From the NCBI GenBank assembly GCA_017471705.1, contig JAFUSH010000040.1, positions 19,915-83,914 on the forward strand: 64,000 bases of DNA, in the 5' to 3' direction. Below are positions 2,778 through 59,280 of this stretch, piece by piece. Both the position numbers and the translations under genes were made by a program. The notes under the pieces are model-generated. The model did not search any database. It was not told the origin of the DNA and was given only the letters and a program-made list of their open reading frames with translations. Positions within the stretch are counted from its first letter, which is position 1. The number at the start of each line of letters is the position of its first letter. The stretch comes from Alphaproteobacteria bacterium (GTDB lineage Bacteria; Pseudomonadota; Alphaproteobacteria; RF32; CAG-239).

Positions 2778-3672
2778 ATTTGGAGCCATAGTTAAAAGAA
2801 TTTTAGCCGCAATTGTGATGATTCCGATTGCGATTGTGACTTTATACGTGGGAAGTCCGTATGTTGAAGTCTTGGCTATTATAGTTGGCAGTTTACTTGC
2901 GTGGGAATGGGCAAATATGCTCTCGGTTCCTCATAGAACCTCCTATTATGTAACTGCGTATATAATGAGCTTGGCTATTGCAATATGGAGCTACAATTTT
3001 TCGGTTATATTGACGATGACGGCAGTTATTTCGGCGGTCGTGTGGTTTATTTCCGAAAGAGAAAAACATCGTCGTTTGCTCACGTTGGGAGTGATGTATA
3101 TATCTATAGGTATCGCCTCTCTTATTTGGATGTATCGCTCATTTGATCCGAGCGAAGGAAATTTTGATCCTCGTTATAATTACAGCTTTATTATGACGGC
3201 GTGGTTTTTCCTGATGGTGTGGAGTATGGATATAGGGGGGTTGGTAGTTGGATGCAATTTACGCGGTCCGAAATTAGCTCCGAAAATAAGTCCCAATAAA
3301 ACTTGGTCGGGATTGTGCGGCGGTGTATTGTTAGCTATGTCGGTGAGTATAATATTTATGTATTTCTGCACACAGGTTATGGAAATACCGTTTTATGACT
3401 TTTCTAAATTCCGTTATATTTCTTTTTCATACCGTCCGCTTGAAATTCGTTATGAATGGAATGTTAATTCGCAAATGTTTTATGCTTTGATGGCGGCGGT
3501 TGTTGCACTTTTGGCGCAAGCAGGTGATTTGGTGGAATCGGCAATTAAACGTCTGGTCGGGGTAAAAGACTCTTCTAAATTAATTCCGGGACACGGCGGG
3601 GTGTTTGATCGTATCGATGGTCTGATTTTTGCCGCTCCGTTTGTTTATTTGTTCTTTATGTATATTTTATAG
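2764..3672 (+). CDS. cdsA: Phosphatidate cytidylyltransferase
   Basis: Polytopic protein ending in KRLVGVKDSSKLIPGHGGVFDRIDG (CTP-transferase signature). I moved the start from the track's 2734 to ATG 2764, which lies behind a GGGAGAG SD and overlaps uppS by 14 nt. Confidence 0.85.
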   Translation: MVSRKFGAIVKRILAAIVMIPIAIVTLYVGSPYVEVLAIIVGSLLAWEWANMLSVPHRTSYYVTAYIMSLAIAIWSYNFSVILTMTAVISAVVWFISEREKHRRLLTLGVMYISIGIASLIWMYRSFDPSEGNFDPRYNYSFIMTAWFFLMVWSMDIGGLVVGCNLRGPKLAPKISPNKTWSGLCGGVLLAMSVSIIFMYFCTQVMEIPFYDFSKFRYISFSYRPLEIRYEWNVNSQMFYALMAAVVALLAQAGDLVESAIKRLVGVKDSSKLIPGHGGVFDRIDGLIFAAPFVYLFFMYIL

Positions 3673-3684
3673 CGAGGTGTAATT

Positions 3685-5106
3685 ATGGAAATTTTGTCAA
3701 ACATTTTGTACTATGTTATTCCTTTTGTAGTTCTCTTAGGAATATTGGTATTTGTTCACGAGTTCGGGCATTTTATAGTGGCTCGTATGTTAGGAGTGAA
3801 AGTAGTTGCTTTTTCTATAGGTTTCGGCAAGGAATTATGGAGCCGTACCGATAAAAAAGGAACCTGTTGGAAAATTTCTGCCGTTCCGCTCGGCGGATAT
3901 TGTCAGTTTTTGGGAGATGCCGACGCATCATCTTCAACAACCAGTAAATCTTTGGCAAAATTATCCAAAAAGGAAAAAGCGATGGCGTTTCCTTTGCAAA
4001 AAACGTGGAAAAAACTGGCAATTGTTGTTGCCGGTCCGTTATTCAATTATATATTGGCGGTTCTAATTTTCATCGGTATTTTCTTTGCTTACGGTAAAAT
4101 TGTTCATCCTTCGGTAGTGGGAGGTGTTATTGACGGCAGTGCCGCCGCCGAAGCAGGAATAATGGTCGGAGATGAAATTTTAAGCATAAACGGAAAACCG
4201 ACACCTGATTTTCAAACTTTAAGCAATGAAGTAATGCTCAGCGAATCTGATGAAGCAGATGTTGAAGTCAAACGTCCTATTAATGTTTCTATGCAGACCG
4301 AACAAATTACTTATTGCGAATGCGGTGAGGAGAAAAACGGACAGATGATAGGTGTTCGCTCCATTCCTGCAGACAGGAACGAAGAGACCGGAGAGTTGTC
4401 GCCGGTTCCGGTGATTATTGACGAAGTGTTCCCTAACAGTCCGGCCGAAAAAGCGGGAATCGTTAAAGGTGATGTATTTGAAAGTATTAACGGCGTACAA
4501 TTGACATATTTTGATGATTTGAAAAAATATGTTGAGGAGCATAACGGTGAAAATTTAGATGTTAAAGGCCGTAGAATGCTTAATTTGAAGGTTGTGCTTA
4601 AGGATACGGATTTTGATAATGAAATCGGCGGTAAAAGCAAACGCAGAATGTTGGGAGTAAGTTCTACTCCGGAATTGGCTTTCAGCGAAAAAATGAGTTT
4701 TGTTGATGCGATTAAAGCCGGTTTTGAAGAAACATACAGTATAACCGCAGTAACTCTGCGCGGAGTTTGGCAAATGATTACCGGTCAACGCGGCGGACAA
4801 GATGTAGGCGGTATAATCCGCATAGCCGAAATGTCCGGAGATGTGAGCAAAACGGGCGGAATTATAGGGTTTATTTACTTTATGGCTCTTCTTTCGGTTA
4901 ATTTGGGATTGATTAATCTGTTCCCGATACCTGTCTTAGACGGCGGAAATATTGTCATTTTCTTGATTGAAATGGTGATAGGACGTGACTTAAAAGAAAA
5001 CATTAAGGATTATATTTTCAAATTCGGCTTGCTGATAATTTTGGCGATTATGCTGTTGGCAACGTGGAATGATATTCTGCATTTGGCAAGTCGTTGGTTT
5101 TACTAA
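3685..5106 (+). CDS. rseP: RIP zinc metalloprotease RseP (site-2 protease)
   Basis: N-terminal HEFGH motif in a TM helix, PDZ-like middle and C-terminal NLFPIPVLDGG. It occupies the conserved cdsA-rseP-bamA position. Confidence 0.9.
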   Translation: MEILSNILYYVIPFVVLLGILVFVHEFGHFIVARMLGVKVVAFSIGFGKELWSRTDKKGTCWKISAVPLGGYCQFLGDADASSSTTSKSLAKLSKKEKAMAFPLQKTWKKLAIVVAGPLFNYILAVLIFIGIFFAYGKIVHPSVVGGVIDGSAAAEAGIMVGDEILSINGKPTPDFQTLSNEVMLSESDEADVEVKRPINVSMQTEQITYCECGEEKNGQMIGVRSIPADRNEETGELSPVPVIIDEVFPNSPAEKAGIVKGDVFESINGVQLTYFDDLKKYVEEHNGENLDVKGRRMLNLKVVLKDTDFDNEIGGKSKRRMLGVSSTPELAFSEKMSFVDAIKAGFEETYSITAVTLRGVWQMITGQRGGQDVGGIIRIAEMSGDVSKTGGIIGFIYFMALLSVNLGLINLFPIPVLDGGNIVIFLIEMVIGRDLKENIKDYIFKFGLLIILAIMLLATWNDILHLASRWFY

Positions 5107-5120
5107 TAAGGAATTGAAGT

Positions 5121-7379
5121 ATGAAAAAAGTAGTTTATGTCGGATTAATGACGAGTTTGATGGCGTTTCAAGCCAATGCCGCAGATTTTTATGTGAAAAA
5201 TATTGAGGTTGACGGTTTGCAGCGTGTTGAGAAAGCAACAGTACTGTCATATTTGAATATTAAGCGTAATTCAAGTGTTTCACAAGATAAGTTGGACAGT
5301 TCTTTCAAAAATTTGTATGATACGGGTTTGTTCAGCGATATCAGTTTTGACACTGCAACCGCGAATGTGCTTAAAATTAATGTGAAAGAAAATCCGATTA
5401 TCGGTAAGCGCGCCTTTGACGGCAATGATAAAATAGATGATAAAATTTTGGAAACCGAAGTTCAACTCGGACCGCGCTCGGTTTACGACAAAGCCAAAGT
5501 ACAGCAAGATGTACAAAGAATTTTGGATGTTTATCGTAAAACCGGTCGTTATTCGGTTACGGTTGAGCCTAAGATTATTGAGCGTGAAGAAAACCGCGTG
5601 GATTTGATTTATGAAATTGATGAAGGTTCCGCTGCTAAGATTGATAAAATTAACTTTATCGGAAACACGCACTATACCGGTTCTGATTTGCAAGACGAAA
5701 TAATGAGCAAGGAAAGTCGCTGGTACCGCATTTTCAGTTCAGCTGAAGATTATGATGCCGAAAAAATGGATTATGATAAGGAGTTGCTCAGACGCTTTTA
5801 TACAAATCGCGGTTATGCTGATTTTTACGTACAGACGGCAATGGCAGAATTAAGTGAAGATCACAAATCTTTTGTGCTTACGTTTAATTTGTATGAAGGT
5901 CCTCGTTATAAGGTTAAAGATATTAAAATAGTATCTAATATAGAAGGCGTTGATACTCGGAGTCTGTACGATGATTTGGAAATTGAAAAAGGTGATTGGT
6001 ACAATGCTCAATCAATAGAAAAATCAATTGCCGAAATGACCGACAGTTTGGGTAAAAAAGGTTTTGCGTTTGTTGATATTTCTACCGAATTGGGACGTGA
6101 TGCCGAAAAAGGAGAGATAGATATTATCTTCAATATTGATGAAAGTGAACGTATTTTTGTTAACCGTATTAATATTACCGGAAATGACCGCACGGAAGAT
6201 GAGGTAATCCGCCGTGAATTTCGTCTGGATGAAGGTGATGCTTTGAATATATCCAAACTTAGAGATTCGCGCAGAAATGTTGAAAATTTAAATTATTTCA
6301 GCAAAATAGATATTCAAACAGATATTGTTGATGAAAATAAAGCGGATTTAAATGTTAACGTAGAAGAAAAATCTACCGGATATTTCAATATAGGTGTCGG
6401 TTATTCAACGACTAACGGCGCTTTGTTCAGAGCCGGTGTTACGGAAAATAATTTCCGCGGAAAAGGACAGGAAATCGGCTTTAATGTAGGAATTTCTCAG
6501 CGTAACAAGGATTATAATATCAGCTTTACGGAACCGTATTTTCTCGGTCGCCGTTTGAGTGCGGGTATTGATTTGTTTATGGAAGATCAGGATTATGAAG
6601 ATGAGGCTTCATACGATACCAGAACTATCGGGGGCCGGACCAGATTTGGTTGGAATTATACCGATAATTTATATCACTTAGCCCGCTATACGCTTAGTAC
6701 TTCCGATATCAAGAACGTAAAGGAATACGCTTCCGAATATGTTAAGGCTGAAAAAGGTAAAGCGACCACTTCGGCGGTGGGGCAGACTCTTATTTATGAT
6801 AAGCGCGACAGCAGCATAAATACTAAAGAAGGTTATTACTTATCGTTTGGTCACGATATATCCGGTTTAGGCGGAGATACAAAGTATAATCGTTTTGATG
6901 CCAAGGCGTATAAATTCTACACGGTGGCTGATTATTATACTTTCAAATTCTTCACCACCGGCGGCTATATAGTCGGTTACGGCGGAAAAGATATTCGTAT
7001 GTCCGATCGTTATTATCTCGGCGGTAATAATATGCGCGGTTTTGAGGTTGCCGGTATCGGCGCCCGCGATAAGGTTACCGATGATGCTTTAGGCGGTAAC
7101 TGGATGATGTATTCGGGGGCAGAGATGACCTTCCCTATCGGATTGGATGAATTGGGAATTAAAGGTCGTACTTTCTGGGATATCGGCGCATTAGGTAAAC
7201 CGGATAACTATAATGCGCAAAAAATTAATTACTCTTCCAAAATCAGACAGTCAATCGGTTTCGGTTTTGATTGGATGTCGCCGATGGGTAAAATTAATAT
7301 TGACTTCGGGTTCCCGATTGTTAAAGAACGCTATGATGAAACAGAAGTGTTCCGTTTGAATTTCGGTACCAGTTTATAG
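5121..7379 (+). CDS. bamA: Outer membrane protein assembly factor BamA
   Basis: 752 aa with a signal peptide (MAFQANA), POTRA-type N-terminal repeats and a C-terminal beta-barrel. Conserved neighbourhood. Confidence 0.95.
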   Translation: MKKVVYVGLMTSLMAFQANAADFYVKNIEVDGLQRVEKATVLSYLNIKRNSSVSQDKLDSSFKNLYDTGLFSDISFDTATANVLKINVKENPIIGKRAFDGNDKIDDKILETEVQLGPRSVYDKAKVQQDVQRILDVYRKTGRYSVTVEPKIIEREENRVDLIYEIDEGSAAKIDKINFIGNTHYTGSDLQDEIMSKESRWYRIFSSAEDYDAEKMDYDKELLRRFYTNRGYADFYVQTAMAELSEDHKSFVLTFNLYEGPRYKVKDIKIVSNIEGVDTRSLYDDLEIEKGDWYNAQSIEKSIAEMTDSLGKKGFAFVDISTELGRDAEKGEIDIIFNIDESERIFVNRINITGNDRTEDEVIRREFRLDEGDALNISKLRDSRRNVENLNYFSKIDIQTDIVDENKADLNVNVEEKSTGYFNIGVGYSTTNGALFRAGVTENNFRGKGQEIGFNVGISQRNKDYNISFTEPYFLGRRLSAGIDLFMEDQDYEDEASYDTRTIGGRTRFGWNYTDNLYHLARYTLSTSDIKNVKEYASEYVKAEKGKATTSAVGQTLIYDKRDSSINTKEGYYLSFGHDISGLGGDTKYNRFDAKAYKFYTVADYYTFKFFTTGGYIVGYGGKDIRMSDRYYLGGNNMRGFEVAGIGARDKVTDDALGGNWMMYSGAEMTFPIGLDELGIKGRTFWDIGALGKPDNYNAQKINYSSKIRQSIGFGFDWMSPMGKINIDFGFPIVKERYDETEVFRLNFGTSL

Positions 7380-8410: not shown

Positions 8411-8857
8411 ATGTCAGAAAATAAAATTTATAATATTGATGAAATTATGAAAATGCTTCCGCATCGTTATCCTTTTTTGTTGGTTGACAGATTGGAAGTT
8501 GAAGAAGCAGGCGTTAAAGGAATTGGTTTGAAAAATTTAACAATGAATGAGTTGTTTTTCCAAGGACATTTTCCCAATAATCCGATTATGCCGGGGGTTT
8601 TGCAGATAGAAGCAATGGCGCAGACGGCCGGTTGTATTGTTATGAGTGCTGATGAAAATTATGCTGAAAATAAGCGCAGCGTGCTGTTTATGTCGGTTGA
8701 AGGCGTAAAGTTCCGTAAGCCGGTGCGTCCGGGGGATCAGCTCAAAATGCACTTGGAAAAAATCAGGGAACGCCGCAATATATTTGTATTTAAAGGTGTA
8801 TCAACGGTTGACGGACAAGTGGTGTCGGAAGCTGAATTGACGGCGATGATTATATAA
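8411..8857 (+). CDS. fabZ: 3-hydroxyacyl-ACP dehydratase
   Basis: LPHRYPFLLVDR and FFQGHFPNNPIMPGV hot-dog motifs. Confidence 0.95.
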   Translation: MSENKIYNIDEIMKMLPHRYPFLLVDRLEVEEAGVKGIGLKNLTMNELFFQGHFPNNPIMPGVLQIEAMAQTAGCIVMSADENYAENKRSVLFMSVEGVKFRKPVRPGDQLKMHLEKIRERRNIFVFKGVSTVDGQVVSEAELTAMII

Positions 8858-8924: not shown

Positions 8925-8977
8925 ATTGTGCCGGAAGTTTTCTGCTTGCAATTATTTACAATTAATATAATATAACT

Positions 8978-9133
8978 TTTGCAGGCGAGAGGTCGTCTGC
9001 GGAGTATCGTAACTCCTTCCAATAGAATAACTCCTCAGAACGGGGAGCTTGCTGAATATGTTGAATAAGCAGGACTGGCTATTGGCAGTTACGAACTCCC
9101 CACCTTGAAGTGATTTAAGGTGGTTTTTGTTTT
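8978..9133 (+). ncRNA. Candidate structured small RNA or transcribed leader, family not recognised
   Basis: A TATAAT box lies near 8966-8971. The following ~150 nt are noticeably more GC-rich than the flanks and form serial hairpins. The first is 8981-9000, an 8-bp stem with a GAGG loop. The second is 9001-9016, GGAGT/ACTCC. A long-range GGGGAG (9042-9047) can pair with CTCCCC (9096-9101). The segment ends in CCACCTT(10 nt)AAGGTGG at 9100-9123 plus TTTTTGTTTT. Confidence 0.35.
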
Positions 9134-9156
9134 AACAAAAGCAAATAAGGAAGTTT

Positions 9157-9390
9157 ATGACAATGTCAAAGAGAGAATATTTGGTCGATAAGCAAACAAT
9201 GAAAGAAATCGGCTATGAACTGTGGAAAATGCGGGTTGAAAGAAATATGTTTCTGCATCAGGTAACTATGCGCACCGGCATACCGGCACGCGATATAGAG
9301 GGAATGGAAATGGGGCGTTATGTGCGTTATCGGTATTTACGGGGGTTAATAGCTTTTTACGGTAAAGAAATGAAAATAATTTTCGAATGA
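9157..9390 (+). CDS. Small XRE-family helix-turn-helix protein
   Basis: 77 aa. IGYELWKMRVERNMFLHQVTMRTGIPARDIEGMEMG fits the HTH_3 pattern. An AAGGAAG SD lies upstream. Confidence 0.7.
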   Translation: MTMSKREYLVDKQTMKEIGYELWKMRVERNMFLHQVTMRTGIPARDIEGMEMGRYVRYRYLRGLIAFYGKEMKIIFE

Positions 9391-9402
9391 AATAGAAAAA
9401 AC

Positions 9403-9435
9403 TTGACAAAATATTTTTATAAGCTAACATAGCTT
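9403..9435 (+). promoter_or_regulatory. Sigma70-like promoter (TTGACA-16-TAACAT) with an overlapping 6-3-6 palindrome, AAGCTA-aca-TAGCTT
   Basis: TTGACA is at 9403-9408, TAACAT at 9425-9430 and the palindrome at 9421-9435. It sits 30 nt upstream of the GC-rich ORF. Confidence 0.4.
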
Positions 9436-9465
9436 ATATTTCCTAACTTTTAATTATAAATAATT

Positions 9466-9834
9466 ATGAACGAAAACAAAAAGATGTTCGGACGCTCGTA
9501 CGTCCCCGTAAAGAACACAGTGATTCTTGCCTACTTCCAGTATGATGAGGCAGGCAAAGTATTTTACACGATGAAGGCGGTCGGCAAGCTCATCAACCGC
9601 AAGAAGCCGATATCTCCGGAGAATGTGGAGGTTTTCGACAAGCACGGAGCTTTCTACCTCTACAGCGATGAACCTCTGATGACGGTTGACGGTAAGCAGC
9701 GGTGTCTGCCCAAGGCGGTGCTGACCTGCGCTCTATCCGATGACCCGAAGGAGCTTGAGAACGCTCTGGCGAAGCTGGCCGGTATTTTGCGTCACTCGCG
9801 TCCCTTTACGAAGGTGTATAATGAAGTCCGCTAA
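9466..9834 (+). CDS. Hypothetical 122-aa protein, compositionally foreign (GC-rich cassette 1)
   Basis: Complete ORF bracketed by its own promoter and terminator. Hand-counted GC is 50-62% per 60-nt line, and 12 of 14 Lys codons are AAG. There is no SD and I recognise no family. Confidence 0.7.
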   Translation: MNENKKMFGRSYVPVKNTVILAYFQYDEAGKVFYTMKAVGKLINRKKPISPENVEVFDKHGAFYLYSDEPLMTVDGKQRCLPKAVLTCALSDDPKELENALAKLAGILRHSRPFTKVYNEVR

Positions 9835-9839
9835 CCGTT

Positions 9840-9875
9840 ACTCTCCCGACCTTAACCGGTCCGGAGAGTTTTTTT
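9840..9875 (+). terminator. Intrinsic terminator of GC-rich cassette 1
   Basis: ACTCTCCcGACC / GGTCcGGAGAGT stem with one C-C mismatch and a 6-nt loop, followed by T7. Confidence 0.7.
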
Positions 9876-9905
9876 ATCTTTTGTTTAAATTTTTTATTGT
9901 GAACT

Positions 9906-9934
9906 CTTGCATAGGAAAAATCGACTCCCTATAT
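9906..9934 (+). promoter_or_regulatory. RpoH (sigma32)-type heat-shock promoter of dnaK
   Basis: CTTG (9906-9909), 17 nt, then CCCTATAT (9927-9934). This matches the CTTG-N17-CCTATNT type consensus. It lies ~35 nt upstream of the dnaK ATG. Confidence 0.55.
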
Positions 9935-9969: not shown

Positions 9970-11880
9970 ATGAGTAATAAAGTTATAGGTATTGATTTGG
10001 GTACAACCAATTCTTGCTTTGCCGTTATGGACGGTAAAGAAGCCAAAGTTTTGGAAAATTCCGAAGGGGCGAGAACAACTCCTTCTATGGTGGCATTTAC
10101 CGATACCGAGCGCTTGGTCGGTTATCCTGCAAAACGTCAGGCGGTCACCAATCCTGAGAATACCTTGTTTGCTATTAAAAGATTAATCGGACGTCGTTTT
10201 GATTCGGCAGAAGTGGCAAAATTTAAGGAACATTCACCGTTTAAAATTGTTTCCGGTGATAACGGTGACGCTTGGGTGGAAGCAAAAGGGCAAAAATATG
10301 CTCCGTCACAGATTTCAGCAATAGTTTTGCAAAAAATTAAGGAATATGCCGAAAGTTATTTGGGTGAGAAAGTAGAAAAAGCGGTGATTACCGTTCCGGC
10401 ATATTTTAACGATTCACAGCGTCAGGCTACCAAAGATGCCGGTAAAATCGCCGGATTGGAAGTTCTGCGTATTATCAACGAGCCGACAGCGGCAGCGCTT
10501 GCTTACGGTTTGGATAAAAAAACTTCCGGTACAATCGTAGTTTATGACTTGGGCGGCGGTACTTTCGATGTTTCTATTTTGGAAATCGGCGACGGCGTGT
10601 TTGAAGTTAAGGCTACTAACGGTGATACATTCTTGGGCGGTGAAGATTTTGACCAAAGAATCGTTAATTATTTGGCTGATGAGTTCAAAAAAGAGCAGGG
10701 TATTGACTTGCGTTCCGACAGATTGGCTTTGCAGCGTTTGAAAGAAGCCGCCGAAAAAGCTAAAATAGAACTTTCGGCTACTACACAGACCGAAGTTAAT
10801 TTGCCGTTTATTACCGCAGACAGCACCGGTCCTAAACACTTAAATATTAAATTAACCCGCGCTAAACTGGAATCTTTGGTGGAAGATTTAATCGAGAAAA
10901 CAGCAATTCCTTGTCAAAAAGCTTTATCAGATGCCGGTTTGAAAGCCAGCGACATCAGCGAAGTTATTTTGGTCGGCGGTATGACACGTATGCCGAAGGT
11001 TCAGGAAAAAGTTAAAGAGATTTTCGGCAAAGAACCGCATAAAGGCGTTAATCCTGATGAAGTTGTAGCTGTTGGTGCCGCTATTCAAGGCGGTGTGCTG
11101 ATGGGTGATGTTAAAGATGTATTGCTTTTGGATGTTACCCCGCTGTCACTCGGTATTGAAACTTTGGGCGGTGTGTTTACGCGTCTTATTGACCGTAATA
11201 CCACTATTCCGACCAGAAAATCACAAGTATTTTCAACTGCCGAAGATGGACAAACCGCAGTTACCATTCGCGTGTTCCAAGGCGAACGTGAAATTGCCGC
11301 ACACAATAAATTGCTCGGTCAGTTTGATTTGGTGGGTATTCCTCCGGCGCCGCGCGGTATGCCGCAAATCGAAGTTACCTTTGATATTGACGCCAACGGT
11401 ATCGTGAACGTTTCGGCGAAAGATAAGGCAACCAATAAAGAACAGGCTATCCGTATTCAAGCTTCCGGCGGATTGAGCGAAGATGAAATCAATAAGATGG
11501 TTAAAGATGCCGAAGCTAATGCCGAAGCCGATAAACAAAAGAAAGAAGTGGTTGAGGCTAAAAACCGTGCTGAAGGTTTGGTTCACGAAGTTGAGAAAAA
11601 CCTGAAAGAGTTCGGCGATAAGGTTTCTGATGCTGATAAAGAGAATATCAAAAAAGCAGTTGAAGATACCAAAGCGGCAATGGAAAAAGAAAATCTGGAA
11701 GATTTGAAATCCAAAACCGATGCCTTAATGCAGGCTTCAATGAAACTCGGCGAAGCGATGTATAAGTCGCAGCAAGCGCAAGGTGCGCAAGGTGCGGCTC
11801 AGGGTGCCGATACCGGTTCTGCCGGAGAAGCCCCTAAAGATGAAAATGTGGTGGATGCCGATTTCGAAGAAGTCAAATAA
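9970..11880 (+). CDS. dnaK: Chaperone DnaK (Hsp70)
   Basis: [15 protein letters not shown]..., DLGGGTFD and [11 protein letters not shown] motifs. I chose ATG 9970 behind an AAAGGAGG SD rather than the track's start at 9907. Confidence 0.95.
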
Positions 11881-12146: not shown

Positions 12147-13454
12147 CTAAATCTTCAGCAAAATCGGATTTTTAATTTCCGGTTTAGTGTCGGAAATTTC
12201 AATAGCAGACAATAAATTTTGTTTGGCTTTTTCGTATTGTTCTTCGCTTTGATAGTGAACCATTGCCAATGGTTTGTTATTATCCGCATAATCACCGATT
12301 TGTGCAAATTCCGAATATCCGGTAGATAAATCAAGTTTTTGTTCCGGTGCGGTGCGACCGCCTTTCATTTCAATAATACTCAAGCCGACGGCTCTGGTAT
12401 CCATTGCACTTACATAGCCTGATTTTTCTGAGAATATCGGTTTTTGATGAGCGGCTTTCGGCAGATAGGTTTCATATTTTTCGACAAAGTCTTTCGGACC
12501 GCCCAAAACAGATACCATAGCAGCAAATTTTTCCAATGCCGCTCCGGAAGCAATAACCTTTTCAATCAGCGAATCGGCGGTGTTTTCGTCGGCACAGCGT
12601 TTGCATTTAATCAATAATTCTTTACAAAGAGTTTGCGTAATAGTATTAAGGCGCGAATCGATTTTTTTGCCCTGCAGATAATCTACCGCTTCCTTAACTT
12701 CCAATGCATTACCGACGGTTGTTCCCAAAACTTGATTCATATCGGTCAAAACGGCACGGGTTTCTGTGCCTGCTCCGTTTGCAACATCAACTATGGATTG
12801 CGCCAAGTTTTTGGCATCTTCAAAATTATTCATAAAAGCGCCGTTTCCGCATTTTAAATCCATAACCAAATACTGTAAGTCAGCGGCCAATTTTTTTGAA
12901 AGAATCGATGCGGTTATTAAAGGAATTGATTCTACAGTAGCGCAGACATCGCGGACGGCATATATTTTTTTATCGGCCGGAGCCAAAGAAGCGGTTTGCC
13001 CGATGATGGCACAGCCGACATTTTTTACGGTTTTCTTAAACAAATCTTTATCGGCTTGGGTGTTATAGCTTGGAATTGCCTCCAGTTTATCAACCGTTCC
13101 GCCGGTATGTCCTAATCCGCGTCCGGCAATCATCGGAACATATACATCGCAAGCTGCCAGAATCGGAGCCAACATTAAACTGACTTTATCACCGACACCG
13201 CCGCTTGAGTGTTTATCGACAATAGGCTTATCAAATTCATTCCACTCCATTTTATCTCCGGAATCGCGCATTGCCAAAGTTAAATCAATGGTTTCACGGC
13301 GATTAAATCCGTTTAAAAATATTGCCATAGTTAAAGCTGCTATTTGTACATCGTTAACCGATTTGTTGATAATGCCGTTAACAAATTCATTGATTTGCTC
13401 TTTTGATAGCTCGTTTTTGTCGCGTTTGCAGCGGATGATTTCTTGCGGTAACAT
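12147..13454 (-). CDS. deoA: Thymidine/pyrimidine-nucleoside phosphorylase
   Basis: 435 aa with VDKHSSGGVGDK and the TGRGLGHTGGT-like segment IAGRGLGHTGGTVDKLE. Confidence 0.9.
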   Translation of the reverse strand: MLPQEIIRCKRDKNELSKEQINEFVNGIINKSVNDVQIAALTMAIFLNGFNRRETIDLTLAMRDSGDKMEWNEFDKPIVDKHSSGGVGDKVSLMLAPILAACDVYVPMIAGRGLGHTGGTVDKLEAIPSYNTQADKDLFKKTVKNVGCAIIGQTASLAPADKKIYAVRDVCATVESIPLITASILSKKLAADLQYLVMDLKCGNGAFMNNFEDAKNLAQSIVDVANGAGTETRAVLTDMNQVLGTTVGNALEVKEAVDYLQGKKIDSRLNTITQTLCKELLIKCKRCADENTADSLIEKVIASGAALEKFAAMVSVLGGPKDFVEKYETYLPKAAHQKPIFSEKSGYVSAMDTRAVGLSIIEMKGGRTAPEQKLDLSTGYSEFAQIGDYADNNKPLAMVHYQSEEQYEKAKQNLLSAIEISDTKPEIKNPILLKI

Positions 13455-58495: not shown

Positions 58496-58523
58496 TTGAC
58501 AAATATTTAAAAAAATATATTCT
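58496..58523 (+). promoter_or_regulatory. Sigma70-like promoter of GC-rich cassette 2 (TTGACA-16-TATTCT)
   Basis: TTGACA at 58496-58501 and TATTCT at 58518-58523. The -35 context ACTTGACAAAtATTT is shared with the cassette 1 promoter. Confidence 0.4.
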
Positions 58524-58573
58524 GACTCTTGCGATTTTTTAATAATTAGTACTAATAATTAAACATTAAGCTT

Positions 58574-59092
58574 ATGAAAAAGGAAGAAGCGCTTAGCAAG
58601 ATTCTTGCAATTATGGATGAGCAAGGTGAGTTATCTGTAGCCGACATTTCTGCCGCCCTGCGTGCCAGACAGCACCCCAAGCCCGAGGAGAGTTTTGACC
58701 TGCTGGTCGAAGTTTTCGGCGAGAAGAAGAGGGTACCTTTCGAGAGTGGCAAGGGTATGAGTCCTATCGGCATTTTCCCGCGCAACGGTCTGAAGTTCTA
58801 CATCGATCTGGACGAGACGGCTATGGTTGAGTTTCCCAACGAGGAAGCCAAGGCCGAGTTCCCCGACGAGGAGATGTGTACTCTTATGCAAGATGTGCGC
58901 AACGAACTCAACGACAAGCTCCGCGAACTGGGCAAACCGATTCTCTCCGGCGATTACTGGCTCAACGGCCACGAGCTTTCCGGACATATCGGATACCATA
59001 TGGCCAAGTTCCGCGACGGCAAGCTCAAGGTGGACTACTACGACAGCTCGCGCCGCGCCAAGATCCGCAAGTTTGGCAGGTTCAACGGTTGA
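58574..59092 (+). CDS. Hypothetical 172-aa protein, compositionally foreign (GC-rich cassette 2)
   Basis: Complete ORF with its own promoter and terminator. Hand-counted GC is 53-55% per line. There is no SD and I recognise no family. The N-terminus (LSKILAIMDEQGELSVADISAALRA) looks like a winged helix. Confidence 0.7.
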   Translation: MKKEEALSKILAIMDEQGELSVADISAALRARQHPKPEESFDLLVEVFGEKKRVPFESGKGMSPIGIFPRNGLKFYIDLDETAMVEFPNEEAKAEFPDEEMCTLMQDVRNELNDKLRELGKPILSGDYWLNGHELSGHIGYHMAKFRDGKLKVDYYDSSRRAKIRKFGRFNG

Positions 59093-59098
59093 ACCGCA

Positions 59099-59133
59099 CC
59101 CCGAGAATAATCATTCTCGGGGGTTACTTTTTT
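59099..59133 (+). terminator. Intrinsic terminator of GC-rich cassette 2
   Basis: CCCCGAGAAT-aatc-ATTCTCGGGG, a perfect 10-bp stem, followed by GTTACTTTTTT. Confidence 0.7.
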
Positions 59134-59156
59134 AACGTATGTTTCCAAAAAAATAC

Positions 59157-59184
59157 TTGCAATTTATGATTTTTATGCTATACA
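59157..59184 (+). promoter_or_regulatory. Candidate rplK promoter (TTGCAA-16-TATACA with TG extension)
   Basis: TTGCAA at 59157-59162 and TGcTATACA at 59176-59184. Confidence 0.4.
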
Positions 59185-59226
59185 AAGCAAGCGTTTGAGT
59201 GATTCAAACGTTGTTTGTGTTAATAA

Positions 59227-59259
59227 TTTGTGGGAGGCGAGCCATCGTCTGACCACAAA
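59227..59259 (+). promoter_or_regulatory. Candidate ribosomal protein L1 autoregulatory leader (mimic of the 23S L1-stalk site)
   Basis: TTTGTGG/CCACAAA helix, internal loop G / GA, AGGCGA/TCGTCT helix and GCCA loop. The GUGGGAGGC ... GACC strand resembles the 23S rRNA L1-binding segment. Confidence 0.45.
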
Positions 59260-59280
59260 CCTAGTTAAAAGAGGTATAAA

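Follow-up and report, generated by a model that had tools for sequence, protein, structure and literature searches.

The DNA considered here is a 64-kb stretch of contig JAFUSH010000040.1 of an alphaproteobacterium, referred to as a whole as the window, and the question it raises concerns a small open reading frame (ORF) at positions 9466–9834, directly ahead of dnaK, the codons of which are unlike those of the genes around it: is such usage the trace of a foreign gene, or a property kept by the lineage itself? Codon-anomalous gene islands are routinely taken as evidence of recent horizontal gene transfer (HGT), and this gene, hereinafter X, together with a second one, Y, at 58574–59092, is a counter-example. 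In the reading we favor, with evenly balanced confidence, X and Y are native to their lineage and specific to it, selection keeps their codon usage distinct from that of the host, and their control would lie at the level of decoding or of the mRNA, with initiation that does not depend on a Shine–Dalgarno (SD) sequence. The lineage of the window is denoted W, the relatives' loci and lineages compared with it are numbered L001–L029, and 55 window genes with a G+C content at third codon positions (GC3) of 0.368 ± 0.030 served as the host reference.

A synonymous codon dialect in X and Y

Gene X, on the forward strand, encodes a basic, soluble, lineage-specific protein of 122 aa in non-host, GC-ending codons. 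Among about 60 window ORFs of at least 80 aa that were screened for composition, only X and Y stood out, and no other GC3-rich intergenic ORF of at least 30 aa was found in the window. X had a GC content of 0.518 and a GC3 of 0.689 in a window of 38.8% GC, and 12 of its 14 lysine codons were AAG (2 were AAA), a recount that agrees with an earlier note on this DNA made from the sequence alone. Gene Y (forward strand; 172 aa, acidic, soluble, lineage-specific), in the same codon dialect, had a GC3 of 0.698 and AAG at 14 of 16 lysine codons; together with its promoter, leader and terminator plan, this bears out the claim of that note that a second, similarly designed cassette lies at 58.5 kb. Relative to the host genes, the GC3 of X and Y deviated by z = +10.6 and +10.9, respectively, which makes both atypical in composition, and their codon log-likelihoods under host usage by z = −6.2 and −6.9. 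Consequently, ORF 9466–9834 was rightly described as a compositional outlier, although the description of the cassette at 9391–9880 as GC-rich stood for GC3 and not for total GC, which is not unique (200-nt windows in lpxD reach 0.555). Likewise, the GC enrichment of X and Y stops at the ORF boundaries and the leader and flanks are AT-rich, so that the picture of AT-rich control regions around a GC-rich body was accurate, whereas the supposed onset of the GC jump a few codons into X was not: over the first 10 codons GC3 has reached 0.7, and the late start is only apparent because of A-rich amino acids at the N-terminus.

The anomaly of X and Y is purely synonymous. The z-scores of GC at each codon position in turn (GC1, GC2 and GC3) were +1.7, −0.4 and +10.6 for X and +2.6, −0.2 and +10.9 for Y, GC2 was 0.328 in X (range over X and Y, 0.33–0.34), and the FYMINK and GARP amino-acid fractions were host-like. 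This bears on the possible, though rather unlikely, alternative that the ancestor of the clade acquired the genes from a donor of higher GC, whose own genes may have been AAG-rich and SD-less, and that slow and uneven amelioration under host promoters followed with no selection on codons. A gene at equilibrium with a donor that gives a GC3 of about 0.69 is predicted to have a GC2 of about 0.43 and a GC1 of about 0.64, and a donor of 60% GC likewise predicts a GC2 of about 0.43 (equations quoted in PMC7042692), and amelioration erodes GC3 first (Lawrence & Ochman; Muto & Osawa, as quoted in PMC7042692). At codon positions 1 and 2, the GC of X does not resemble that of such a donor, and the combination of host-like GC2 and amino acids with an extreme GC3 is the reverse of the amelioration order. 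A donor homologue of X or Y was also not found among 5.8e9 protein clusters, in IMG/VR or in PLSDB. Ancient acquisition would, on the other hand, agree with an atypical usage that forms a coherent, donor-like dialect, with the similar GC3 of X and Y within one genome (0.69/0.70 in W, 0.54/0.57 in the ERZ1039782 assembly) and with the orphan status of both families, for which cellular relatives are lacking, a frequent trait among genes of mobile origin.

The dialect is common to X and Y (r = 0.78). Pooled over 13 homologues, the codons CTG/CTC, CCC, CGC, GGC, GCC, AAG, GAG, CAG, AAC, TAC, TTC, GAC, CAC and ATC were raised, whereas TTA, TTG, ATA and AGA, as well as GCG, CCG, GGG and CGG, were lowered relative to the host; that is, C-ending codons are used in the four-fold and NNY families, and AAG, GAG, CAG and CTG replace AAA, GAA, CAA and TTR. 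The depletion of GCG, CCG, GGG and CGG means that this is not simple GC maximization, which argues against selection on GC content as such and against GC-biased gene conversion (gBGC). The proposal that gBGC raised GC locally at two hot spots of recombination, codons being under no selection, which we regard as improbable, draws on the GC3 increase in all lineages and on the fast evolution of the X and Y amino-acid sequences (about 10 times faster than those of their neighbors), which could go with frequent allele exchange; it meets with the end of the enrichment at the ORF boundaries, an unraised GC2 and the loss of G-ending NCG and GGG codons. A GC3 shift of +0.3 is, moreover, far above the gBGC effects reported for bacteria.

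If X and Y were instead expressed at an extremely high level, ordinary translational selection could have revealed the true optimal codons of the host. Their promoters are near consensus, among NNY codons those ending in C are optimal in many bacteria, and the AAG share of the ribosomal protein genes is somewhat raised (0.35–0.47). However, the genes for ribosomal proteins, HU, dnaK and frr of this clade have a GC3 of 0.26–0.39 and prefer GGT, CGT, GAA and TTG (GGT far above GGC, GAA far above GAG). High-expression codon bias of X and Y was rejected on the basis of this opposite usage, and the absence of an SD sequence is atypical of the most highly expressed genes here; thus, translational selection is a very improbable explanation. 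Two further candidates were rejected. Folding did not bear out the idea that a specific mRNA structure underlies the high GC (z of only −1.3 for X and −0.5 for Y relative to shuffled sequences), and an overlapping antisense gene or another site-specific constraint was ruled out by the saturation of synonymous sites. The window contains a single tRNA gene (Met).

Locus, conservation and persistence of the dialect

The gene order in the window is bamA (5121–7379), lpxD, fabZ (8411–8857), a 608-nt spacer, X and dnaK (9970–11880). X adjoins dnaK on its upstream side in seven lineages with three different upstream neighbors, namely, fabZ in L001–L004, L016 and L017, ddl in L005, L006 and L021, and rlmH in L007–L009 and L023, and in every locus reaching past X, dnaK follows directly. 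The exception is an eighth, distant lineage, L018, in which X stands after fabZ and a small insertion separates it from dnaK. In a search of 5.8e9 protein clusters, 17 unannotated clusters of X homologues with 59–100% identity were found; a profile search of 1.84e9 representatives gave only three clusters, of which two more distant ones, both after fabZ, were added, and further metagenome and genome scans yielded few additional X and Y loci. No X homologues were found outside this clade, on phage contigs (IMG/VR) or on plasmids (PLSDB), and no flanking repeats, integrase, tRNA or attC were seen beside X. The patchy presence and variable location expected of a mobile cassette were not observed; every lineage examined has X upstream of dnaK.

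The ratio of nonsynonymous to synonymous substitution rates (dN/dS) of X was 0.09–0.21 at dS from 0.8 to more than 2 (dN/dS of 0.02 for dnaK), and these alignments indicate that X is a genuine protein gene under purifying selection. The foreign payload proposed in the earlier note therefore fails: X is conserved next to dnaK in seven lineages under purifying selection with no homologue outside the clade, and that note itself had named conservation of the gene at this locus among relatives as evidence against its reading. Chimeric assembly, against which the note had advised mapping reads, was excluded, as several samples, assembled independently, show the same arrangement. It should be noted that in this clade fabZ is nowhere followed closely by lpxA. 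After dnaK stands a convergent gene (12147–13454; a phosphorylase of the glycosyl-transferase-family-3 / PYNP_C type according to Pfam in the syntenic loci), and dnaJ is thus outside the usual dnaK–dnaJ arrangement. In L018, the insertion between X and dnaK (3000–3920) comprises a small Cys-rich (metallothionein-like) ORF and a gene for a CsoR-type metal repressor (PF02583), with a promoter of its own that has an inverted repeat.

GC3 was raised in every homologue, from 0.49 to 0.69 in X and from 0.57 to 0.70 in Y, compared with 0.30–0.42 in neighboring genes. Codon identity at conserved residues was at the random level (z from −1.3 to +0.3 for Y of the W group relative to L012; z = 0.5 for X of W relative to L018), and synonymous sites have thus turned over between deep lineages. 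Meanwhile, the deviations from host codon preference were correlated between deep lineages and between X and Y (r = 0.57–0.80), and the persistence of the dialect across lineages whose synonymous sites have turned over argues that selection maintains it. In F81-type resampling, computed from the upper limit on residual codon identity, neutral decay bounds GC3 at about 0.52–0.59 even when the ancestor is assigned 100% GC3, and we infer that the observed values exceed what such decay would leave. For ancient acquisition, the difficulty is that synonymous sites are saturated, yet Y keeps a GC3 of at least 0.57 everywhere together with the same codon preferences.

The direction of change was also assessed. 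On the W branch, third-position changes from GC to AT and from AT to GC numbered 4:5 and 2:6 in X and 3:9 and 5:9 in Y, compared with 6:6 and 10:9 in the flanking control gene ybaK; the W lineage thus had 2–5 GC-to-AT changes in X and Y, while about 11–17 would be expected for Y from the ybaK rate, and this deficit relative to the flanking gene likewise speaks against ancient acquisition. The corresponding ratios were 11:3 for X in the sister lineage L016 and 14:5 for Y in the sister lineage L024. It was concluded that a persistent force, the strength of which varies among lineages, probably holds the dialect, as judged from a few short loci. A gene-specific bias kept against mutational bias, as expected of a codon-gated regulon, was accordingly found, with the caveats of small samples and uneven decay.

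Several points weigh against maintenance by selection. The sister lineages L016 and L024 show an excess of GC-to-AT changes (10–14 to 2–5), as passive decay predicts, and the variation of X GC3 among lineages (0.49–0.69) is also expected from passive decay; both this excess and the spread of GC3 from 0.49 to 0.70 over the two genes favor ancient acquisition. Polarization by parsimony can make parallel decay look like AT-to-GC change, and the counts are small, so that they are suggestive and not decisive. The dialect looks like the codon usage that is normal in an organism of moderately high GC, as would a donor signature. Host codon usage was derived from one 64-kb window and short loci, and native genes with the X and Y dialect may exist elsewhere in these genomes. 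A functional link between X and dnaK is suggested by synteny alone, X is without a family or fold match, and the decoding or mRNA mechanism is conjecture.

Under selective maintenance, X would be native to a clade of uncultured alphaproteobacteria of the rumen and inherited vertically there as a lineage-restricted gene for a small protein, a free-standing transcription unit fixed ahead of dnaK and transcribed from a strong sigma-70-type promoter. Its SD-less, AU-rich leader would recruit ribosomes by an SD-independent route, the conserved hairpin terminator would insulate it from the dnaK promoter, and selection on the coding mRNA or its decoding would keep the dialect, which would then not be the fading trace of a recent transfer. 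X and Y may thereby form a small class of SD-independent genes whose output is set by decoding or mRNA stability, either because they need particular tRNA species or wobble modifications or because an open AU-rich start is followed by a GC-rich body that resists RNases; the result would be a separation from the bulk AT-codon transcriptome. In that case, X would act in stress or proteostasis beside dnaK. X and its alignment profile (A1) showed no homology to GrpE, HrcA, DnaJ or MerR-HspR in Pfam and NCBIfam, the families of canonical dnaK partners. A bolder version, which we consider unlikely, is that X, Y and perhaps more genes constitute a dedicated SD-less class written in a private codon dialect kept by selection, some of them with the leader box AATTAGTACTAATT, and thus a translationally insulated mini-regulon in which tRNA supply, wobble modification or mRNA stability, and not transcription, would set the output, with one member locked to the dnaK locus. 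If the mini-regulon were real, natural bacterial codon usage would serve as a regulatory channel for lineage-specific proteins. If selection does keep a private dialect in SD-less genes, parametric HGT calls can err for conserved native genes, and X and Y would be a natural example, open to study, in which the choice of codons signals regulation or stability.

X fully matches none of the known systems to which it was compared, namely, compositional "alien" genes, codon-gated programs and genes with SD-less AU-rich leaders. Like the alien genes and genomic islets of parametric HGT detection and of Lawrence–Ochman amelioration, it is a gene-sized island of non-host GC3 in an AT-rich genome that encodes an orphan protein and has its own promoter and terminator; unlike them, it is fixed beside dnaK across synonymously saturated lineages, its anomaly is synonymous only, the dialect is retained and not lost, and flanking repeats, tRNA, mobility genes, a donor or a mobile reservoir were not detected. 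With codon-biased programs such as Streptomyces bldA/TTA and modification-tunable transcripts, it shares a gene-specific synonymous bias counter to the genome and, in addition, a position beside a stress gene, whereas its bias spans all codon families and not one, so that these programs serve here as a working analogy. An example of modification-dependent translation is the decoding of NAC versus NAU codons with queuosine (PMC11755703).

Control signals and predicted proteins

The promoter of X (9403–9430, forward strand) has a −35 box TTGACA (9403–9408), a 16-nt spacer and a −10 box TAACAT (9425–9430), with 10 of 12 consensus matches. The −35 sequence TTGACAAAA was invariant in eight lineages, in which a −10 box TAnnnT stood at a fixed distance (alignment A3). 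Over the −10 box of W lies a 9-3-9 dyad (9418–9438), TATAAGCTAacaTAGCTTATA (shuffle P = 0.006); its core palindrome AAGCTAacaTAGCTT is exact at 9421–9435 and unique in the window, so that the palindrome of the earlier note is correct and in fact longer. This dyad is lineage-specific, since the X promoters of relatives have a dyad of unrelated sequence (12-2-12 in L007, 7-2-7 in L017) or none. The L007 dyad, at about 3085–3110, is the perfect palindrome AAAGGAAAGTGTgtACACTTTCCTTT over the −10 box and is unrelated in sequence to that of W.

The X leader (9439–9465, forward strand) is AT-rich and SD-less and has a conserved box (C)TAACTTTTAAT as well as ATAATT ahead of the ATG. The anti-SD duplex energy of +1.6 kcal/mol corresponds to no SD, in agreement with the earlier note, and no lineage has an SD at X; the accompanying statement that almost every other gene of the window has one was overstated, as the tally over 59 window starts was 35 strong, 4 weak and 20 none, with several of the last group being doubtful starts. 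The leader box CUAACUUUUAAU, kept across lineages, resembles the T7 gene 10 epsilon enhancer UUAACUUUAA, an SD-independent initiation element (PMC9590205). Epsilon-like boxes were not enriched in the window, and the resemblance, which is short and stands in an AT-rich context, is a lead only; the Y leader has a different, palindromic box. In being SD-less in every lineage, the X leader is like the SD-independent AU-rich leaders that depend on S1 and those of the Bacteroidetes-type SD-less mRNAs; unlike in the organisms with such mRNAs, most host genes here use an SD.

The X terminator (9841–9875, forward strand) consists of a hairpin CTCTCC-c-GACC / GGTC-c-GGAGAG (9841–9868) and a run of seven T residues. 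It folds in the mRNA, and all 70 of 70 cells of the pairing table over seven lineages were paired (alignment A6), two pairs having compensatory changes and seven being invariant. That X is a self-contained unit with its own promoter and terminator, as the earlier note had read, was thus confirmed, including the fold, and the unit is monocistronic. About 30 nt downstream of the terminator, the distance given in that note, begins the RpoH-type promoter of dnaK (9906–9934, forward strand; CTTGCAT-N14-CCCTATAT), which is almost invariant in seven lineages and precedes the dnaK ATG at 9970; its assignment to sigma-32 is presumed from the alphaproteobacterial RpoH consensus. The spacer between X and dnaK, containing the terminator and the dnaK promoter, was 85% identical over seven lineages, and the sigma-70-type promoter and terminator of X are separate from the RpoH-type promoter of dnaK.

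The promoter and leader of Y (58496–58573, forward strand; alignment A4) comprise a −35 box TTGACA (58496–58501), a −10 box TATTCT (58518–58523) and a palindromic box AATTAGTACTAAT(A), and are SD-less. The Y terminator (59099–59133, forward strand), read from the sequence and folded, is a hairpin CCCCGAGAAT..ATTCTCGGGG with a T-run, and equivalent hairpins stand downstream of Y homologues. The design common to X and Y in all lineages is an invariant −35 box (C)TTGACAAA, a −10 box TAnnnT or TATnCT, an AU-rich, SD-less leader of 27–55 nt and a private hairpin terminator for each gene. A shared leader operator of the form TAATWAT-N-ATWATTA was rejected, since it had two window matches, was devised post hoc and is absent from all relatives.

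The Y box AATTAGTACTAAT(T/A), at 58544–58561 in W, was conserved in L024 (2970–2983) and L025 (2921–2934) and occurred as a variant in L014. The identical 18-mer was also observed in the X leader of the distant L018 (2552–2569) and L019 (695–712) at an equal spacing from the ATG. The −35 box is at −78 both in Y of W and in X of L018, and elsewhere in the 236 kb examined the Y box had only weak matches with two mismatches. The occurrence of the Y box in distant X leaders hints at a shared regulator and operator or at a common origin of the control regions. In total, 29 clusters of Y homologues with 48–99% identity were found, and Y is likewise under purifying selection at high dS (dN/dS of 0.08–0.22); Y lies between ybaK and rplK in close relatives only, and its context varies in distant ones.

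The X protein (13.9 kDa, isoelectric point (pI) 9.3, soluble) has an AlphaFold2 (AF2) model with a predicted local distance difference test (pLDDT) score of 70.9, in which a five-stranded N-terminal sheet is followed by three C-terminal helices. No family match was found in Pfam, PHROGs, NCBIfam, PADLOC or PDB sequence profiles, and Foldseek searches against PDB and BFVD gave nothing below an E-value of about 0.2; the earlier note had likewise not recognized the protein. Membership in toxin, antitoxin, anti-CRISPR (Acr) or defense families was not indicated, AcrF10 and AcrID1 appearing only at E > 4. For Y (pI 5.7), Pfam, PHROGs, NCBIfam, PADLOC and the PDB sequences likewise gave no match. 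Its AF2 model has a pLDDT of 82, and its top Foldseek matches, 8q4e and 8oks (E = 0.04–0.1, probability 1.0, identity 11–21%), gave template modeling (TM) scores of 0.31–0.42 relative to the query and 0.40–0.63 relative to the target. The model thus weakly suggests a C-type-lectin-like core, similar to the C-terminal domain of Legionella Lcl (8q4e) and to Bdellovibrio Bd2740 (8oks); unlike these, Y has no signal peptide or fiber/collagen-like region and has an extra N-terminal helical hairpin. This hairpin is duplicated in the homologues P0040, P0041 and P0045. X and Y define two protein families that are new and confined to Alphaproteobacteria of the rumen, X being a constant companion of dnaK. 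Homology between them was not detected, with an hhalign probability of 0.6% and a similarity of the short motifs LMTVDGKQRxLP and LLxEVxGExKRVP that is not significant. In L012, an unannotated ORF of 94 aa adjoins Y (3548–3832, reverse strand); it has a GC3 of 0.57 and a preference for AAG, and its motif VELVDLFGQKTHVPTSVL is similar to the parts of X and Y that are best conserved, although not with statistical significance.

The HTH gene and structured RNA upstream of X

Outside the X unit, the spacer after fabZ contains an inserted module of about 445 bp (8935–9390, forward strand) with a promoter, an RNA of about 150 nt (8982–9135) and a gene for a helix-turn-helix (HTH)-like protein of 77 aa (9157–9390). 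A small HTH-like gene does precede X, as the earlier note had stated, whereas its assignment to the XRE type is weak: the score for Pfam HTH_25 was 19.5 bits, under the cut-off of 24.6. The note had organized the two genes as a repressor with a controlled payload. In the corresponding alternative, X is a foreign payload and the adjacent XRE-type repressor binds the −10 palindrome in the style of anti-CRISPR-associated (Aca)/Acr, controller (C)-protein or toxin–antitoxin (TA) pairs. For this, it can be said that the HTH gene ends 13 nt before the −35 box of X with no terminator between its stop codon and the X promoter, so that read-through is possible although each gene has its own promoter, that the 9-3-9 dyad over the −10 box is statistically unusual, and that W is the only lineage seen with both the insertion and this dyad.

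However, the 443 bp at 8935–9377 were 91–94% identical to L026, L027 and L028 in other genomic contexts, and copies of the module (L026 2275–2728, L027 2275–2728, L028, L029 200–654) were found in at least three unrelated contexts, including one beside gyrA, where a dCache-SpoIIE gene precedes the module, and one in which a phosphorylase gene does. The X loci of relatives lack the module, and the gap between fabZ and X there is about 134 nt; X occurs without an HTH gene in L001, L005, L007, L016, L017, L018 and L022, at least six other lineages have X with no HTH neighbor, and the HTH gene occurs without X in L026–L029. The HTH gene thus moves within a 443-bp module that also includes its promoter and the structured RNA, and the W dyad was found neither beside its other copies nor at the module's own promoter nor at the X promoters of relatives. 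X itself is conserved, syntenic and under purifying selection, PADLOC and PHROG matches are lacking, and the HTH score is sub-threshold. These comparisons indicate that the HTH gene and the structured RNA are a later insertion unrelated to X. The notion of a repressor-plus-payload module was consequently abandoned, since the HTH gene belongs to an independent module and the X genes of relatives stand without it; we regard such an arrangement as most improbable, and nothing was found in support of an interaction between the HTH protein and the dyad confined to the W lineage.

The resemblance to Aca–Acr, C-protein restriction–modification and type II TA pairs is limited to a small HTH-like gene, a small orphan gene and a promoter dyad. 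Unlike in such pairs, X and the HTH gene appear to be transcribed as separate units, the HTH gene is part of a multi-locus RNA and HTH module with no conserved linkage to its partner, and X is chromosomal, syntenic and outside any mobile element, with no matches to defense or anti-defense families.

The RNA linked to the small HTH gene is a by-product of this study. The region 8982–9135 folds with z = −6.4 into five helices and a terminator-like hairpin (9100–9133), has the conserved loops GAAUAUAUUGAAUA and AAUAACUCC, and shows compensatory changes at 15 of 48 pairs in four copies. No credible match for the region was found in Rfam (best, Atu_C7 with 16.9 bits, compared with a threshold of 45 bits), and it is a candidate for a new cis-regulatory RNA or small RNA (sRNA). 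Pairing of GGGGAG with CUCCCC could provide an alternative to the terminator, in a riboswitch- or attenuator-like manner. Elsewhere in the window, an apparent 1-kb gap at 32.7–33.7 kb turned out to be a membrane-protein ORF. By eye, the rplK leader (59140–59280, GGGAGGCGAGCCATCGTCTGACC) and the start of the new RNA (8984–9005, GCAGGCGAGAGGTCGTCTGCGG) have AGGCGAG..TCGTCTG in common, which may be due to chance.

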